A stretch of 64,000 nt of DNA from Escherichia coli. Lineage in GTDB: Bacteria; Pseudomonadota; Gammaproteobacteria; Enterobacterales; Enterobacteriaceae. A program made the translations under genes and the position numbers. Of this stretch, positions 23,571 through 34,578 are shown one piece after another. Location: NCBI RefSeq assembly GCF_024298765.1, contig NZ_CP101210.1. One strand, given 5' to 3'. Each line of letters begins with the position of its first letter. Positions within the stretch are counted from its first letter, which is position 1. The notes beneath the pieces are model-generated. The model was not told where the DNA came from. It did no database searches and saw only the letters and a program-made list of their open reading frames with translations.

Positions 23571-24866
23571 TTAATTTTTCATTGCTTCGTTATGGGGCAT
23601 GGTTGGGGCAAACTCGCTTAACTGTGTATTTAACAAAGCTACCTGTGCATTATTGTTTTCAGACATCCATTTTCCGTATACCTGAAATACCATTTGCGCA
23701 TCTGCATGGCCCATCTGGTTTGCTATAAATGCCGGGTTAGCACCAGCTGTCAGCGACCAGCAGGCATAAGTATGTCTCGACTGATATGATTTTCGATGGC
23801 GGAGTCCGGCACGTTTTATCGCTGCGTCCCACATCTGCCTTATTGAGTCAACGGTAAAATGGTCACCATAATTTTTTACTCTCGCTGACACTTCAGGTTG
23901 AAAAACAAAGGTGCATTTTTGTTTTTCTGTTCTGCCATACTCTCTGAGGTGAACATCAATGATATGCTCTTTGCTCAGTCTCGTTAATGTCATCTGACTC
24001 CGGAGAGCGTCGATTGCTGGCTTAATAAGATGAATGACCCGATTGGTTCCCGCCTGTGTTTTTGGTACCGTGAAACGGTCTTTTGCTAAATTTCTCCTGA
24101 TCATCATTGTTCCATTTTTCAGATCTATGTCCTCCCATCCAAGTGCACACAGCTCACCAGGGCGAACGCCAGTATAAACAGAAACACACCATAAATTTTT
24201 TGCTTGCTGATTTCTGCACGCATCGATAAGACGGATAAATTCCTCCCGCGAAAGAGGATCCGGAATGGTTCTTGATTCCTTTAATGGCGAGATCCCCTTA
24301 AACGGATTATCTGGCAGGTAACCGTTATCAACACCAAACTGGAACACGGCGTTAAGATTTGTCATGTAATTATTTACAGTTACAGCCGATCTCCCTGGTT
24401 GTGTAACAATATAGTTACTTTTGGGGATCTGGTATCCAGTCAGTAGCTCTTTACGAACCTCCAGTAATTTTTCTTTATTAATCGATGAGGCAAGATTTTT
24501 TTCACCGATTATGCTCAGGATATTTTTGATGACGGCACGGTATGTGTTGAGTGATGTTTTGGCGACTTCAGTTTCTTTCAGTGCCAGAAATTTTTCAGCC
24601 AGTTCTTTTATGGTTAAATCTTGTCGGGCCTCACCAAATTTTTCCAGATTGCGTGAGGAGGGAAACTGTTTTGCATAGTCGAAAACACCAGTTTTTATTG
24701 CGTAACAAACAGAGGAGCGTAGTTCACCTGCAACGCGCCTGTTTTTTGCTGTGTCAGGAACCCCCAGATTTTCCCTGACTCTTACGCCTTTATAAACAAA
24801 CCAGATACGTAATTTCCCTCCATGGTTTTCCACGCCTGTCGGATATTTCATTTCAACTTCTCTCAT
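23571..24866 (-). CDS. intQ: Phage tyrosine integrase (431 aa; possible alternative start at 24851)
   Basis: C-terminal catalytic region with RHTYACW...GH and tyrosine-recombinase R/H/Y spacing; gene ends at the host junction. Confidence 0.9.
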   Translation of the reverse strand: MREVEMKYPTGVENHGGKLRIWFVYKGVRVRENLGVPDTAKNRRVAGELRSSVCYAIKTGVFDYAKQFPSSRNLEKFGEARQDLTIKELAEKFLALKETEVAKTSLNTYRAVIKNILSIIGEKNLASSINKEKLLEVRKELLTGYQIPKSNYIVTQPGRSAVTVNNYMTNLNAVFQFGVDNGYLPDNPFKGISPLKESRTIPDPLSREEFIRLIDACRNQQAKNLWCVSVYTGVRPGELCALGWEDIDLKNGTMMIRRNLAKDRFTVPKTQAGTNRVIHLIKPAIDALRSQMTLTRLSKEHIIDVHLREYGRTEKQKCTFVFQPEVSARVKNYGDHFTVDSIRQMWDAAIKRAGLRHRKSYQSRHTYACWSLTAGANPAFIANQMGHADAQMVFQVYGKWMSENNNAQVALLNTQLSEFAPTMPHNEAMKN

Positions 24867-24885: not shown

Positions 24886-25137
24886 TCAAGTAAGATGACG
24901 TCTTGGTCTCGCTGATGCCTGGCGCTCAATCCAGCGATCAATTTCTTCCAGGTTGTAAAAGCATGGACTGTTATCCCATGGCATACTGTCATGAGCGACA
25001 TGCTTATATTCCCTTCCTTCCATAAACGATTTTTCCCGGGCCTTTTTTAACGTACCTTTTTTTATTCCTTTCAGCGCAATTAACTGCTCTTCGGATACCC
25101 ATTTGCCGGGAGAGACAATCATGATTACTTCGCTCAT
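24886..25137 (-). CDS. Putative excisionase / small DNA-binding protein
   Basis: Small basic ORF immediately upstream of and co-directional with int; assigned from position and size only. Confidence 0.55.
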   Translation of the reverse strand: MSEVIMIVSPGKWVSEEQLIALKGIKKGTLKKAREKSFMEGREYKHVAHDSMPWDNSPCFYNLEEIDRWIERQASARPRRHLT

Positions 25138-25209: not shown

Positions 25210-27681
25210 TTAAGAATCAGCCTGACTCGGGATCAGTTTTTGCCAGATAACTGAAACGTATTTTGCCTGGTAACGGGCGTCATCAAGTGCATTATGGCGC
25301 TCACCTTCGAATGGAATAGCCGTTCTGGCATCGAAGTCTATGGCTTTCCCCAGCTCAACGATTGTGCGTACATCGCGATCGTTGTAGTAACGCCACGGGC
25401 AGGGGATCCCCTGCCGTTCGTATGAACGGCGCAAAATCGTGTTGTCGAAGTTGGCTCCATTTCCCCAAACCTGAACAAAAAATTCACTGGAGTTTTCGTC
25501 GATAAATTCCCGCAATTGTAACAGTGCATCATCTAACGGGATTTCATCGGTCATAATGGCAGATTGCGCTTCGCGTGATTGCTTAAGCCACCATTTAATG
25601 GTGTCCCGATCAATGACTCCGCCAGCAGTTTCCAGATCGATAGTCTTACTAAATTCCGGTCCCATATCTCCGGTTTGCGGATCGAAAAATATTGCACCTA
25701 TTGAGATGATCGGGGCATCAGGATTTTTTCCCATGGTTTCAAGGTCGATCATTAGATGGTCACACGTCCTGCTGGTGGATGTGATTTCGTGATGACCGTT
25801 CACCTTAATTGAGTGATCTGCCGTCTCGCCAGTTTCATTATCGCTATTGTGATGCTGATTGCCGCCAGTGTTCTCCTTGTGTGGATGTTCAGCGCCTTCC
25901 ATTTCCTCCGGATCATCTTCCTGAACTTCAACCTGATACTCTTCATCGAATGTTTCTTGGTATGTTGCGTCGCCCATCACCGCGCCACAATCAGGGCAGT
26001 TGCCGCCGCCGGTCTGACCGCAGGCGGTGCAGACTTTTTCCACTTCCTGTTGCGCCACTGGTTCAGGCTGTTTCGTTTCTGGCTCGTTTTGTAACGCATT
26101 TGTGCTGTTTTGTTCCGCTTTTTGGTAGTTCCGTTCCGATTCATGCTGGTTCTGGTTCACAGAATCGCGGGTCTGGATCCCCTTAACCCATTTCGGATCA
26201 TTCGGGTCACTAATCCCTTCAACAAATTCACCACGTGATGCAGCAAGCAACTTATCGGCGTCAGGCTGGCTGATATTGGCTGCCTGCATAATTTTGTTTA
26301 CTTCGTCAGCGGTAACTTTTATCGGCTCTGGTTGTTCTGAATCTTCAGCGGTATCTACATTTTGCGGTAAGCCCGTGTATGTGCCATTTTTTCGGGCAAA
26401 ATATTCTTCTTTTGTGATTTCAGTGGCGCCAGCAGCCAGTGCCTTATCCAGACCAGAAAGTTTGTTTGCGCGACCGTATTTTTCTCCGTCCTTATCTGCG
26501 AAGAGGAAATAGAACGGCCCCTCACGCTCTACAGATGGTTCAGCTTCCGGCGCGGTTTCATTTTTTGGGATATCAGATACCTCAGTTTCCACTGCATCAG
26601 TTTGTGTTTCTGATGACTGGAGAACATCAACAGTGCCCAGGTCTGTTTCTTCATTCTCAAACACGCCCTTTGTCGTCAGGTATTCGCAGATATATTTGTT
26701 CAGTGCTATGGGATCTTTGTGAATGTCGATCGGACGCTCACGGACAAGGCCAAAAATAGTCTGGCGGTCGTAGCGAAGGGCATCAGGCTGTTTGCGCATT
26801 GATGCCGAGATACGCTTCCAGTCTTCGCGGTCGTTGTCGATAACTTCTTTTTTTGCCCAGCGATGGATGCTGCCGTCAATGTTTCCGGCATCCACATCAC
26901 CAGGCCAGAGAGCGTAGGCCAGTTCGTCATCCAGTGTTTTCCATGTCTGCTTGTATTCGCGATGAATGGCAGCAATGACCGGGCTGATTTTTCCTGTTGA
27001 ATTTTCAGTGTACTGTTGATTGGCTCTGGCGCGGGCGAGATCAACAACAGACGTGTATTTTCCGGTTTCCTTGCGTTCACCTTCGCGACGTTTTTTCCAG
27101 ATGCGCATCTCTGCCTGAATTTCGGGCCATTTAGCACCAGGAATACATTTATGCTTAACCCACCCAATGGCGTGCAACTTAAGCTCCGGATACATGGCGT
27201 TAACTTCTGGCATTTTCATCAACGCTTCAACGATATGTCCGTCGAATGTTGCCATGTCTTCCTGCAACAATTCCTGTGCGCTAATAACCATATCAACGGT
27301 GATGTTTTCACATGTGTCGAACTTAACCATGACAGCGTTCTGTACTTCAGGGGCCAGCTTGTCAAAAGTGACGTTCATCGGATCGGATTCAGTCTCAACC
27401 GGGACAAAAGAAGCAGACTCCTCATCCCAGCGGTTTTCCTGCATATATTCAGCATCCCATGAATCGAGGGCAGGGCGGGGTATGCCAGGTTTATCCTCGC
27501 AGACAATAAATTTATAAGCGCAGTCCTGAGCAGCCGGATAATGTTCCAGGAACTGCCAGTGAAATTTTGCTCGAGCACGGCGTTCGTCGCCAGCTTCAAT
27601 GGCTGTGGCTACAGCCACAGCGCCTTCTTCCCTTGTTGCCAGTTCGTCAGGAATAGCGGCGCAAATAAAGACTTTACTCAT
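25210..27681 (-). CDS. Large prophage exonuclease-like protein (823 aa) with central zinc ribbon and C-terminal DnaQ-like 3'-5' exonuclease domain
   Basis: C-terminal motifs DLETMG, WGNGANFDNTIL and HNALDDARY fit the DEDDh exonuclease pattern; CTACGQTGGGNCPDCG zinc ribbon mid-protein; occupies the position of the decayed ydfE in K-12 Qin. Confidence 0.7.
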   Translation of the reverse strand: MSKVFICAAIPDELATREEGAVAVATAIEAGDERRARAKFHWQFLEHYPAAQDCAYKFIVCEDKPGIPRPALDSWDAEYMQENRWDEESASFVPVETESDPMNVTFDKLAPEVQNAVMVKFDTCENITVDMVISAQELLQEDMATFDGHIVEALMKMPEVNAMYPELKLHAIGWVKHKCIPGAKWPEIQAEMRIWKKRREGERKETGKYTSVVDLARARANQQYTENSTGKISPVIAAIHREYKQTWKTLDDELAYALWPGDVDAGNIDGSIHRWAKKEVIDNDREDWKRISASMRKQPDALRYDRQTIFGLVRERPIDIHKDPIALNKYICEYLTTKGVFENEETDLGTVDVLQSSETQTDAVETEVSDIPKNETAPEAEPSVEREGPFYFLFADKDGEKYGRANKLSGLDKALAAGATEITKEEYFARKNGTYTGLPQNVDTAEDSEQPEPIKVTADEVNKIMQAANISQPDADKLLAASRGEFVEGISDPNDPKWVKGIQTRDSVNQNQHESERNYQKAEQNSTNALQNEPETKQPEPVAQQEVEKVCTACGQTGGGNCPDCGAVMGDATYQETFDEEYQVEVQEDDPEEMEGAEHPHKENTGGNQHHNSDNETGETADHSIKVNGHHEITSTSRTCDHLMIDLETMGKNPDAPIISIGAIFFDPQTGDMGPEFSKTIDLETAGGVIDRDTIKWWLKQSREAQSAIMTDEIPLDDALLQLREFIDENSSEFFVQVWGNGANFDNTILRRSYERQGIPCPWRYYNDRDVRTIVELGKAIDFDARTAIPFEGERHNALDDARYQAKYVSVIWQKLIPSQADS

Positions 27682-27774: not shown

Positions 27775-27966
27775 TTAAAGACCTGCCGGGATTTCGATAT
27801 TATCCTGGTGAATAACTTTATCGACCGGGTAACAGTTACCGGGAATTTTCTGTTCGGTTGCTGCTGTCATACACTCCTGCATTGTCCTGTGAACACTGAC
27901 TGCAATATCAACTGGCTCTCCGGAAACAAGAAAAACTGTCAGAACAAGCGCAAATGCTGAATTCAT
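27775..27966 (-). CDS. ydfD: Small membrane/secreted protein (63 aa)
   Basis: MNSAFALVLTVFLVSGEPVD hydrophobic N-terminus; directly downstream of dicB as in Qin. Confidence 0.7.
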   Translation of the reverse strand: MNSAFALVLTVFLVSGEPVDIAVSVHRTMQECMTAATEQKIPGNCYPVDKVIHQDNIEIPAGL

Positions 27967-28151
27967 TGTGCACATCCTTTTGGCATCAGACGTAAACGAG
28001 CCAGCATTGAAACAATGCATATTTTATTTAATAGCTCCCGTTCTTGTTTTCTCTTGTTAATGGCATCTTCAGTAAATACAGGGTTACTGATAGTGACACC
28101 AATTTCAAAACAACCTTCAGACGTATTAACGTTTGGTAATAACGTTTTCAT
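27963..28151 (-). CDS. dicB: Cell-division inhibitor DicB (62 aa)
   Basis: MKTLLPNVNTSEGCFEIGVTISNPVFTEDAINKRKQERELLNKICIVSMLARLRLMPKGCAQ matches recalled DicB; lies downstream of dicF. Confidence 0.85.
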   Translation of the reverse strand: MKTLLPNVNTSEGCFEIGVTISNPVFTEDAINKRKQERELLNKICIVSMLARLRLMPKGCAQ

Positions 28152-28320: not shown

Positions 28321-28378
28321 AAAAACGGCGGCAGAGCAGTCACGGAGTAAAACTGATACCGCCAAACGTCACCAGAAA
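28321..28378 (-). ncRNA. dicF: DicF small RNA
   Basis: Reverse complement of 28327-28378 reads TTTCTGGTGACGTTTGGCGGTATCAGTTTTACTCCGTGACTGCTCTGCCGCC, the recalled DicF sequence, ending in a GGCGG/CCGCC hairpin and U-tract. Confidence 0.85.
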
Positions 28379-29520: not shown

Positions 29521-29928
29521 TTATTTTATTGATTTATTTTTACGCGCTTTAAGCATTTCTTCGAAGAGTTTGTTGAAGTTTTCTACTCTTGCGCGCATTT
29601 CAGACAGCAAGGCTTCCTGCTCGGAAGATGGAAGAGCATCGAATAATTCGATCAATTCTTTGTGGTTGGGAGTTAGCTCTGTTTCCACATGAAGTTCTTG
29701 TGCAGGCACTGGTGCCTTGTCTTCGTCACCAAACATTAGCCATGTAGGTGAGCACTTCAGAGCATCCGCTAAAGCAAACAATCGTTTTCCGACTGGCTGG
29801 GTTTCGTCTCTTTCCCATTGTGAAATTGTGACGTGAGCAACTCCAGCGAGGCGCGCAGCTTCTCGTTGTGTTAAGCGTAATTCTTTTCGTCGCGCCAGAA
29901 CTCGCTGGCCTAGGGTTCTTGTATCCAT
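29521..29928 (-). CDS. dicA: Prophage repressor DicA (HTH_XRE, 135 aa)
   Basis: HTH RLAGVAHVTISQWER and C-terminal ...EMRARVENFNKLFEEMLKARK match recalled DicA; divergent from dicC. Confidence 0.9.
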   Translation of the reverse strand: MDTRTLGQRVLARRKELRLTQREAARLAGVAHVTISQWERDETQPVGKRLFALADALKCSPTWLMFGDEDKAPVPAQELHVETELTPNHKELIELFDALPSSEQEALLSEMRARVENFNKLFEEMLKARKNKSIK

Positions 29929-32662: not shown

Positions 32663-33688
32663 ATGCACATTTTATCTGTTTCAAAAAAGGAAGTTGGAAG
32701 AGCTGGGGATAGATTAGTTTCTCAGTTTGGTACAGGTGAAAAATATAAAGAGGAAGATGTACAAATTCTTCATGAGTGGAGGATGTTGCATTTATATCCT
32801 TTAAGTAAAATACAATTTTATATGGAAAGAGAGGCTATTTCCTTAAACAAAAATGCGTTACTATCCTCTAGAATTAAGAGGATGCCTTCCATTGTTACTA
32901 AGCTTTCTAGATTTCCTGATATGAAGTTAAATAAGATGCAGGATCTTGGTGGGTGCCGGGCTATTTTAAATAATCTGGATCAAGTGTATGATTTAGTTAA
33001 TAAAATAAAATCATCTAAATTCTCACATGAACTAGTTAGAATGGATGATTACATGATAGACGTGAAAGATTCTGGTTATAGAAGCTTTCATATGGTCTAT
33101 TCATTCCAAAATAAAAAATTTCCATCTTTAAATGGGTTGCGCATTGAAATGCAAATAAGAACAGCTATTCAACATAGCTGGGCTACAGCAGTTGAAATGG
33201 TTGGTTTGTTTCGAAAGGAATCATTGAAATCTGGTTTTGGTGATGCAAGATGGCTTAGGTTTTTTGAATTGGTATCAGAGCTTTTTTATAAACTTGAGTA
33301 TGAAAAAGAACCATCTGGGAGTTATATAAAAATATCAGAAGAATTAAGTTATTTATCCGTCGAGTTGAATGTTTTCGATATATTAGCTGCTTACAATGCC
33401 GTAGTTAGCCATATTGAGGGTAGCAAAAAATATGATAAAGGACTTTGCATAATTGTTGTTGATACCATAAAGCGGAATATAAATATAAAGAGCTTCGAAA
33501 ATCACAATCATGCGAAGGCGGCAGAAGCTTATGTCGAGTCTGAAAAATACTGCGCGGAAAATAAAGGCTGTGAAGTGGCTATGGTTTCTGTTAGTTCAAT
33601 TAGTGAATTAAAAAATGCATATCCTGCTTACTTTTTAGATACGAAAACTTTTTTAAATTATCTCAGTAGGTATGTTTTTATAAAATAA
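32663..33688 (+). CDS. RelA/SpoT-homologue synthetase-domain protein (341 aa); candidate fused toxSAS toxin-antitoxin
   Basis: All four synthetase motifs present: RIKRMPSIVTK (RxKxxxSxxxK), DLGGCR (DxxGxR), GYRSFH, EMQIRTAIQHSWA (ExQIRT...W). About 130-aa C-terminal extension, no adjacent partner ORF, and much lower GC than the flanks. Confidence 0.75.
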   Translation: MHILSVSKKEVGRAGDRLVSQFGTGEKYKEEDVQILHEWRMLHLYPLSKIQFYMEREAISLNKNALLSSRIKRMPSIVTKLSRFPDMKLNKMQDLGGCRAILNNLDQVYDLVNKIKSSKFSHELVRMDDYMIDVKDSGYRSFHMVYSFQNKKFPSLNGLRIEMQIRTAIQHSWATAVEMVGLFRKESLKSGFGDARWLRFFELVSELFYKLEYEKEPSGSYIKISEELSYLSVELNVFDILAAYNAVVSHIEGSKKYDKGLCIIVVDTIKRNINIKSFENHNHAKAAEAYVESEKYCAENKGCEVAMVSVSSISELKNAYPAYFLDTKTFLNYLSRYVFIK

Positions 33689-34422: not shown

Positions 34423-34578
34423 ATGAAGCAGCAAAAGGCGATGTTAATCGCCCTGATCGTCATCTGTTTAACCGTCATAGTGACGGCACTGGTAACGAGG
34501 AAAGACCTCTGCGAGGTACGAATCCGAACCGGCCAGACGGAGGTCGCTGTCTTCACAGCTTACGAACCTGAGGAGTAA
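34423..34578 (+). CDS. hokD: Hok-family type I toxin (51 aa) with overlapping mok-like frame starting at 34366
   Basis: MKQQKAMLIALIVICLTVIVTALVTRKDLCEVRIRTGQTEVAVFTAYEPEE matches recalled HokD; AAGGAGAAG RBS; upstream in-frame extension resembles mok. Confidence 0.85.
   Translation: MKQQKAMLIALIVICLTVIVTALVTRKDLCEVRIRTGQTEVAVFTAYEPEE

Follow-up and report, generated by a model that had tools for sequence, protein, structure and literature searches.

The 64,000-nt stretch of chromosomal DNA analysed here (the window; Escherichia coli contig NZ_CP101210.1, assembly GCF_024298765.1) contains an intact ~44-kb lambdoid prophage of the Qin/Tritos type, which occupies the Qin site, with rspB on one side and ydfJ on the other, and whose early-left operon carries an exonuclease gene, hereafter exo. 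Judged by sequence comparison, exo encodes a RecE-family protein in which the PD-(D/E)XK nuclease domain, together with the recT gene, has been replaced by a DEDDh exonuclease domain. The preliminary description of this locus had taken the product for a lone nuclease without a recombinase partner. The absence of a single-strand annealing protein (SSAP) was upheld, but two thirds of the protein, the zinc ribbon included, are the scaffold of RecE (exonuclease VIII), a relationship that the description had missed and that makes the gene something other than an unrelated lone nuclease. The preferred reading, to which a probability of about 0.5 is given, is that the product acts during lytic growth as an SSAP-independent 3'-5' DNA-end exonuclease of phages that depend on the RecBCD-Chi-RecA pathway of their host. 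The steps that lead there differ in strength: the enzymology is near certain, a DNA rather than an RNA substrate is reasonably probable, and the specific biological role is the weakest step and is put forward tentatively.

Already on record are the annotated family (YdfE_N, YdfE_C and Rv2179c-like) and the nuclease-only 'Tritos-type' module, catalogued in 2025 in Table 1 of Zheng et al. (PMC12315714). What is added here is the RecE scaffold with a swapped nuclease of opposite predicted polarity, the strict anti-correlation of the DEDDh tail and recT, a signature motif of the family, and a negative outcome on the criteria that define EcD-type nucleases (PMC12153337).

The RecE scaffold and its DEDDh tail

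The gene is an uninterrupted open reading frame (ORF) of 823 codons with an ATG start, and its product is 100% identical to that of the RefSeq coding sequence WP_001695751.1, annotated as 'exonuclease', which strain 104 of E. coli shares with numerous further genomes. Identity is likewise 100% when the surroundings of the gene are included, both in strain 104 (NZ_CP029164) and in many more genomes, mostly of avian isolates, in which NCBI's annotation pipeline PGAP names the gene 'exonuclease' or '3'-5' exonuclease'; PHROG 2082 ('exonuclease') covers the full length of the protein. The segments referred to below are the following (aa, amino acids; AF2, AlphaFold2; pLDDT, predicted local distance difference test; dN/dS, ratio of nonsynonymous to synonymous substitution rates):

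25210..27681 (-): whole gene, RecE-family scaffold fused to a DEDDh exonuclease, 823 aa (ORF, RefSeq identity, PHROG 2082)
27061..27681 (-): domain D1, aa 1-207, the 'N1' head (YdfE_N), predicted alpha/beta and helical (AF2)
26662..26949 (-): domain D2, aa 245-340, predicted helical, module N2 common to RecE-type proteins (AF2 pLDDT >90, NCBIfam match from aa 246, segment mapping, dN/dS 0.16)
26377..26520 (-): domain D3, aa 388-435, predicted small beta-beta-alpha-beta-alpha fold, module N3 (AF2 pLDDT ~90-96, dN/dS 0.05)
26185..26247 (-): signature motif LAAsRGEFVEGISDPNDPKWV, aa 479-499, present in RecE-type and DEDDh-type proteins (conservation)
25987..26031 (-): CxxC-x7-CxxC putative zinc ribbon, aa 551-565, common to RecE (conservation, RecE alignment)
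25762..25971 (-): acidic linker, predicted to be disordered, aa 571-640, net charge -16 (pLDDT 35-50, dN/dS 0.85)
25243..25758 (-): DEDDh (DnaQ-fold, two-metal) 3'-5' exonuclease domain, aa 642-813, with D646, E648, D746, H796 and D801 (PF16473, Foldseek, phmmer, alignment)

The C-terminus is predicted, from sequence profile and structural model alike, to be a complete DEDDh 3'-5' exonuclease, which bears out the DnaQ-like exonuclease proposed in the preliminary description. Pfam PF16473 (Rv2179c-like 3'-5' exonuclease) matched aa 642-813 over positions 2-177 of the 177-position model (E 1.8e-67; 226.9 bits against a cut-off of 27). The catalytic motifs are present (DLETMG, with D646 and E648; WGNGANFD746NTIL, WGNGANFDNTIL; and HNALDDARY, with H796 and D801) and align with the catalytic residues of phage T4 DexA, taken from PMC12153337. 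Specifically, D646 and E648 of Exo I align with DexA D7 and E9 (D in 71/73 and E in 73/73 relatives), D746 of Exo II aligns with DexA D119 and is invariant in 67 relatives, and H796-NALD-D801 of Exo III, with the H-x4-D spacing of the 'h' subtype, corresponds to DexA H186-x4-D191, both residues being invariant in 65 relatives; this last correspondence was made by inspection, MAFFT having misplaced the H-x4-D stretch. DexA (8KEL) was also the sole solved protein reached by sequence (phmmer, E 1e-6), and it headed the Foldseek ranking (E 1.7e-11) obtained with the AF2 model of aa 461-823 (pLDDT ~90 in the DEDDh domain), followed by RNase T, oligoribonuclease (Orn), REXO2 and a CRISPR-associated DnaQ domain. 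Because the profile, the fold and the invariant catalytic residues agree, the enzyme class is regarded as secure. The protein thus has in common with DexA the DnaQ fold and all five DEDDh residues, whereas the extra loops of DexA are absent from it, and the setting differs as well: DexA, like most homologues from phages, is an unfused protein of ~180-230 aa, and here the domain forms the C-terminal quarter of 823 aa. The domain has homologues in 1312 phage records, most of them encoded by genes of their own; the surroundings of two such stand-alone genes, one from a Yersinia phage and the other from Pseudomonas phage PAE1, were not informative.

The remainder of the protein resembles RecE. The NCBIfam equivalog model of exodeoxyribonuclease VIII (NF007259) matched aa 246-625 over positions 271-602 of 877, with a score (282.9 bits) that lies below the equivalog cut-off of 1269, and BLASTP against RecE of phage Rac-SA53 gave 74% identity over aa 474-621, the cysteine ribbon included. 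Both BLASTP and megablast show the similarity to RecE ending exactly at the start of the RecE nuclease domain, at aa 621 or nt 1856 (the DNA-level match to recE spans nt 1453-1856), i.e., the domain-swap junction falls inside the acidic linker, at about position 25819 of the window. The PD-(D/E)XK domain itself (PF12684, residues 564-866 of RecE) had no Pfam match in the 823-aa protein, and phmmer with two RecE nuclease tails found none either.

The scaffold family is a narrow one, made up of enterobacterial phage proteins: an exhaustive phmmer search with aa 1-640 against 1.84 billion representative proteins returned only 247 relatives. This representative search exposed the modular family; the close-homologue search returned near-identical E. 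coli copies. Long relatives are assembled from an alternative head (N1 or that of Rac RecE), a common middle, a segment with the motif and the ribbon, and either a DEDDh or a PD-(D/E)XK tail, each of the four head-tail combinations being represented. In the relative P0128, a stretch with 72% identity to residues 1-616 of RecE runs on into a DEDDh tail. Among 46 long relatives, Pfam identified PF12684 in 12 and PF16473 in 6, and in newer Pfam releases the scaffold is described by PF27430 (YdfE_N) and PF27432 (YdfE_C), which take their names from the truncated ydfE of K-12 and match close homologues of the 823-aa protein.

Three domains are predicted with confidence in the AF2 model of aa 1-460 (mean pLDDT 83, from an alignment of 68 sequences), and disordered acidic linkers lie between them. 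No structural relative of D1 is known, no SSAP-like fold was present in the N-terminal model, and the head as a whole (aa 1-245) is an alternative module that is absent from Rac RecE. Net charge is negative in every segment of the protein, in keeping with the acidic N-terminal region described earlier. Among the non-catalytic elements, the signature motif (aa 479-498) is the best conserved across the family; it shows 83-87% identity at a depth of ~44 and has ten positions that are 97-100% conserved among 100 sequences. Its consensus, LAAxRG[ED][FY]V[ED]GISDPNDPKW, is found in proteins that carry either tail and are otherwise 20-30% identical, and AF2 models it with a pLDDT of ~80. The motif has the look of a site for partner binding or another function in the N-terminal region of RecE. 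Downstream of it, the four cysteines of the CxxC...CxxC element noted in the preliminary description (C551/C554 and C562/C565) are present, and they are conserved in 80-84 of ~85 members; that they form a zinc ribbon is read from the sequence, because AF2 pLDDT is 52-62 at this point.

Additionally, several long relatives, P0136, P0170 and P0212 among others, had no DEDDh or RecE tail detectable with the seeds used, and the RecE-related proteins described in the literature as 'RecE-2' are reported to be without a nuclease domain by AlphaFold 3. Because of these two observations, a third scaffold class, tail-less or differently tailed, may exist.

Tail type, recT and conservation

Comparison with RecE of the Rac prophage shows how far the likeness extends. 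The scaffold is common to both (signature motif, Cys4 ribbon and module N2), both proteins have long acidic linkers, and both genes occupy the same slot, distal in the early-left operon just before xis/int. RecE, however, has a PD-(D/E)XK tail of 5'-3' polarity and is accompanied by recT, whereas the window protein has a DEDDh tail of predicted 3'-5' polarity and no recT. The same two features separate it from the two-component recombinases (lambda Red, RecET), which combine a 5'-3' exonuclease that leaves a 3' tail with an SSAP encoded beside it. No RecT, Bet or Erf gene is annotated anywhere in the 44-kb prophage, and none was found in PHROG scans of the small ORFs of the early region. The earlier statement that no recombinase partner could be recognised between int and dicB is thereby confirmed for the whole prophage.

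The pairing of tail and recT is the same in relatives. A DEDDh-tailed gene is followed directly by xis and/or int in the window, in Tritos, mEp460 and vB_EcoS-640R1, and in four divergent relatives (recT in 0/8). Conversely, RecT is the next gene in all four PD-(D/E)XK-tailed relatives, namely Rac-SA53, P0198, P0224 (PHROG RecT-like, 1.5e-97) and P0131 (E 2e-58). A wider census drew on 80 IMG/VR loci, which were fetched via the signature motif (50-aa motif alignment) and classified by local phmmer with a Pfam check:

DEDDh tail: 67 loci (58 with at least 800 nt downstream), RecT in 0
PD-(D/E)XK tail: 9 loci, RecT in 9/9, adjacent
cut by a contig end: 4 loci, RecT not assessable

Taken together, recT accompanies 0/75 DEDDh-tailed and 13/13 PD-(D/E)XK-tailed genes, with no exception, in a sample that is phylogenetically non-independent and biased to E. 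coli prophages close to the query. Because tail type tracks recT, the exchanged unit is the PD-(D/E)XK domain plus recT on one side and the DEDDh domain on the other, and the missing annealing partner is systematic rather than the outcome of a local deletion. DEDDh-tailed loci outnumber RecE+RecT loci by 67 to 9 among the 76 classifiable IMG/VR loci, a sample biased towards query-like motifs, and the two head types are about equally frequent on the DEDDh tail (32 vs 31 loci).

The gene is among the most widespread early genes of E. coli prophages, is often present in several copies and is inconsistently labelled. Of 5426 complete E. coli genomes, 4799 (88%) have a match, at a median of two places per genome, and in 3536 of them 80% or more of the gene is covered by a copy; overall, there are 10637 matching places and 3547 records with a copy of at least 80%. 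The same arrangement is found in the viable phages Tritos, mEp460, HannyBb and PhiR42_1. Compared with the mEp460 allele (L006:6001-8472; 91.8% identical in nucleotides), the window allele has dN/dS values of 0.05-0.23 in the folded domains, the motif and the nuclease vs 0.6-0.85 in the linkers; purifying selection thus acts on the folded domains and on the active site.

In the same comparison, dS along the gene varies more than tenfold, from 0.05 in the DEDDh domain to 0.57-0.67 around aa 341-438. This variation points to within-gene recombination, with a mosaic at module boundaries.

Chi sites, operon context and possible roles

Zheng et al. (Genome Res 2025; Table 1 of PMC12315714) list four phages as a 'Tritos' class, all of them Chi-rich, with a nuclease but with no SAP, SSB or anti-RecBCD gene. 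The main text of that paper argues that such phages rely on host RecBCD and links the absence of anti-RecBCD or SAP genes to Chi abundance; it contains no discussion of a chimeric RecE/DnaQ architecture and no function test for the Tritos class. The prophage of the window has the same profile, i.e., a nuclease, no SAP, SSB or anti-RecBCD gene and at least four top-strand Chi sites. The Tritos gene, which is flanked by the same genes as the window gene, shares 99.1% nucleotide identity with it, and the Tritos-type module is the same thing as that of the window. No SSAP, SSB, Gam or Abc2 gene is annotated in the prophage, which for Gam, Abc2 and SSB reflects the PGAP annotation only, with no separate search. 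The Chi octamer GCTGGTGG occurs 10 times in the prophage, against 1.47 expected, a number reached by 0/100 shuffles:

25771, 33986, 35434, 35491, 39799, 43991, 44459, 47497 (+): eight Chi sites, on the strand of the late genes
36024, 36076 (-): two Chi sites
25771..25778 (+): the Chi site GCTGGTGG that lies inside exo

Four of the top-strand sites fall in the stretch that separates the replication genes from the lysis genes, close to the right-hand end of the virion map.

The operon runs from a dicA-like repressor through small ORFs, DicF, dicB and ydfD to exo, xis and int, so that the immediate neighbours, xis and ydfD, are those named in the preliminary description:

29521..29928 (-): DicA/CI-like repressor, start of the leftward early region (ORF list, annotation)
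28326..28377 (-): DicF small RNA (sRNA), upstream, same operon (Rfam RF00039, 72.5 bits, E 4e-15)
27963-28151 (-): dicB (division inhibitor), upstream, same operon (annotation)
27775-27966 (-): ydfD (lysis protein), upstream gene, same operon (annotation)
24886..25137 (-): xis, directly downstream, in the slot held by recT in RecE-type phages (ORF list, annotation)
23571..24851 (-): int (ORF list, annotation)

With DicF, dicB and ydfD, the part of the operon upstream of exo is rich in host-toxic functions, and because exo is placed behind the toxic dicB and ydfD it is presumably silent in lysogens, where it is probably not expressed. A promoter and terminator scan around exo returned nothing above chance and no sigma-70-like site on the coding strand from the repressor to xis, which is weakly consistent with transcription from the early-left promoter only.

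On the preferred reading, transcription of exo would start at the early-left promoter upon induction or infection, as it does for recE or lambda exo. The scaffold would bring the enzyme to the DNA structure or partner of RecE, most likely double-strand DNA ends, where the DEDDh head, probably as a dimer as in DexA and RNase T, would remove nucleotides from DNA 3' ends. Such trimming of 3' tails could keep ends usable by RecBCD or could serve other 3'-end editing. An SSAP-independent accessory in end processing is proposed because the phage lacks an annealing protein and a RecBCD inhibitor and is Chi-rich.

Several points weigh against this proposal. 3'-5' exonucleases usually inhibit homologous recombination, as the main text of PMC12315714 states, and for this reason an accessory role in favor of recombination is not the obvious expectation. 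That the scaffold targets DNA ends is something we infer, because even in RecE the function of the N-terminal domain is unknown, apart from its enhancement of linear-linear recombination (2023 review, PMC11611040). PF16473 is named after the exoribonuclease Rv2179c, and the NCBI name is often '3'-5' exoribonuclease', although RNA is the less probable substrate. Finally, the promoter scan is a weak consensus test, and as such a weak basis for early-left-only expression, and the relatives counted in the recT census are neither independent of each other nor an unbiased sample.

A broader reading, for which the odds are low, would make the RecE-family scaffold a reusable delivery platform, on which interchangeable nuclease heads that differ in polarity would be guided to one and the same DNA structure or partner in the host. 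In E. coli prophages, the version with the DEDDh head appears to be the commoner of the two. If true, the broader reading would amount to a so far unstudied way in which phages process DNA ends without an annealase, which could cooperate with RecBCD-Chi (blunted 3' tails would let RecBCD load) or be a weapon against the 3' ends on which the recombination-dependent replication of competing phages relies.

The preferred reading has to be weighed against four others. The preliminary description had suggested nucleic-acid degradation for defence or anti-defence. Neither role gained support from the tests run in this analysis, and the literature searches made yielded no account of the function of this gene and no anti-defence role of its family. 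In the first of the four, rather unlikely in our view, the DEDDh head would degrade the DNA of competing or superinfecting phages, e.g., DNA with modified bases, as reported for EcD, and exo would be a nuclease of inter-phage exclusion or defence. Plasmid-borne EcD is reported to cleave only 5-hydroxymethylcytosine (5hmC) DNA and to protect against T4 (PMC12153337). The window domain has the EcD fold, with DexA as its best structural match, the prophage carries other defence-like accessory genes (the PDC-S33 candidate described below), and very high prevalence in E. coli would suit a benefit to the host. EcD ('HREX'), however, is a different, single-domain, stand-alone protein, which has in common with the window protein its catalytic fold and E. 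coli origin and is proposed to be a nuclease of phage-bacterium conflict (PMC12153337).

The class criteria given there (in DexA numbering, Trp at 152, Asp or Glu at 169 and no tetramer-forming Asp90) also speak against this option. W152 is replaced by Y766 (relatives have Y in 42, T in 13, C in 11 and W in 1, i.e., W in 1/67), and D169 by A788 (A, T or V in relatives), the alignment near 169 being uncertain, with D782 and D784 close by; neither of these 5hmC residues is therefore conserved. D90, in turn, is retained as D718, which is invariant in 67 relatives. No significant defence match was obtained with PADLOC-DB v2, the only hit being to a generic exonuclease effector (12 bits, E 0.024, 23 residues). 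Furthermore, a distal slot in a repressed early-left operon behind dicB and ydfD, the lack of a promoter-like site in the scan and probable silence in lysogens fit poorly with a defence gene, and a defence role leaves the RecE scaffold in the recE position unexplained.

Quite improbable, although suggested by the family name, is an Rv2179c-like exoribonuclease that would process or turn over transcripts or sRNAs of the phage or of its host, e.g., the neighbouring DicF. The Pfam family owes its name to a Mycobacterium tuberculosis 3' exoribonuclease, the NCBI name carries the same implication, and the structural matches ranked right behind DexA are RNase T, Orn and REXO2. The best match in both sequence and structure, however, is a DNA exonuclease, T4 DexA, and the domain substitutes for a DNA exonuclease on the scaffold of a recombination protein. 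Genomic context adds to this: the P22-like phage Bas106 encodes a stand-alone homologue of 182 aa (58.7% identity to the C-terminal domain) in an early-left recombination (Rec) module with the order Erf, SSB, HNH, exo, Abc2, i.e., between SSB/HNH and Abc2 and, unlike in the window, together with an annealing protein and an anti-RecBCD protein. Similarly, epsilon34 has a stand-alone DnaQ-like exonuclease in a P22-like Rec module, as cited in the main text of PMC12315714. By analogy, these P22-like contexts favor a DNA over an RNA substrate.

More improbable still is an anti-defence nuclease that would destroy an immune nucleic acid or signal of the host during lytic growth (retron msDNA, DRT cDNA or linear oligonucleotide signals). 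Counter-defence genes typically have such early-operon timing, and a single-strand 3'-5' exonuclease could clear immune molecules made of single-stranded DNA. On the other hand, no homology to described anti-defence proteins was found, and the large conserved RecE scaffold, together with the strict swap with the RecE nuclease plus recT, points to DNA-end metabolism and away from msDNA or a small molecule as the target.

The weakest option, a non-functional relic, i.e., a decaying recET module that lost recT and gained a useless domain, might be suggested by K-12, which presumably has only the truncated ydfE and exoD, and by the many partial copies (10637 places vs 3547 records with a copy of at least 80%), but it is very nearly dismissed by intact ORFs in >3500 genomes and in viable phages, by dN/dS of 0.05-0.23 in the folded domains with invariant catalytic residues, and by the keeping of the same fusion on two different N-terminal heads.

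Annotation, wider meaning and other genes of the prophage

Two of the names in use for this gene go further than the evidence. In several phage records (PV340562, OV696610, ON470612 and others) the DEDDh-tailed gene is labelled 'exodeoxyribonuclease VIII / dsDNA exonuclease', and NCBI PGAP often names it '3'-5' exoribonuclease'. Both names overclaim, and the former implies the wrong nuclease chemistry; it is misleading because the chemistry of the tail, the recT partner and the head all differ from those of RecE. Thus, an 'exonuclease VIII' annotation of a DEDDh-tailed gene should not be taken to imply RecE-like recombineering activity.

The K-12 members of the family, ydfE (in Qin) and exoD (in DLP12), are truncated pseudogene remnants from the N-terminal part, without the exonuclease domain. 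The window copy, by contrast, is intact.

The arrangement presents a puzzle, in that a type of nuclease that normally suppresses recombination sits in the recombination slot, and it frames the question of how Chi-rich phages with neither an SSAP nor a RecBCD inhibitor run recombination-dependent growth. The partner of the scaffold would in addition reveal what the N-terminal two thirds of RecE contribute, for instance in RecET direct cloning.

Identity of the window protein with EcD was ruled out, since the primers given in PMC12153337 encode a protein that starts with MIDTET and ends with TIPETY. A search of viral contigs with a 20-mer core of an EcD primer gave one chance match, in an unrelated GC-rich contig; the EcD gene is possibly codon-optimised.

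Two further genes of the prophage were noted. One of them, hokD (34423-34578, plus strand), encodes a type I toxin. The other, in the post-replication region (32663-33688, plus strand), encodes a 341-aa RelA/SpoT-domain protein and lies in an island of low GC content (32-40% vs ~47% nearby). This protein gave a full-length match to the PADLOC candidate defence family PDC-S33 (E 5e-119) and, on the basis of that match, is likely to be a defence or toxin moron borne by the prophage.

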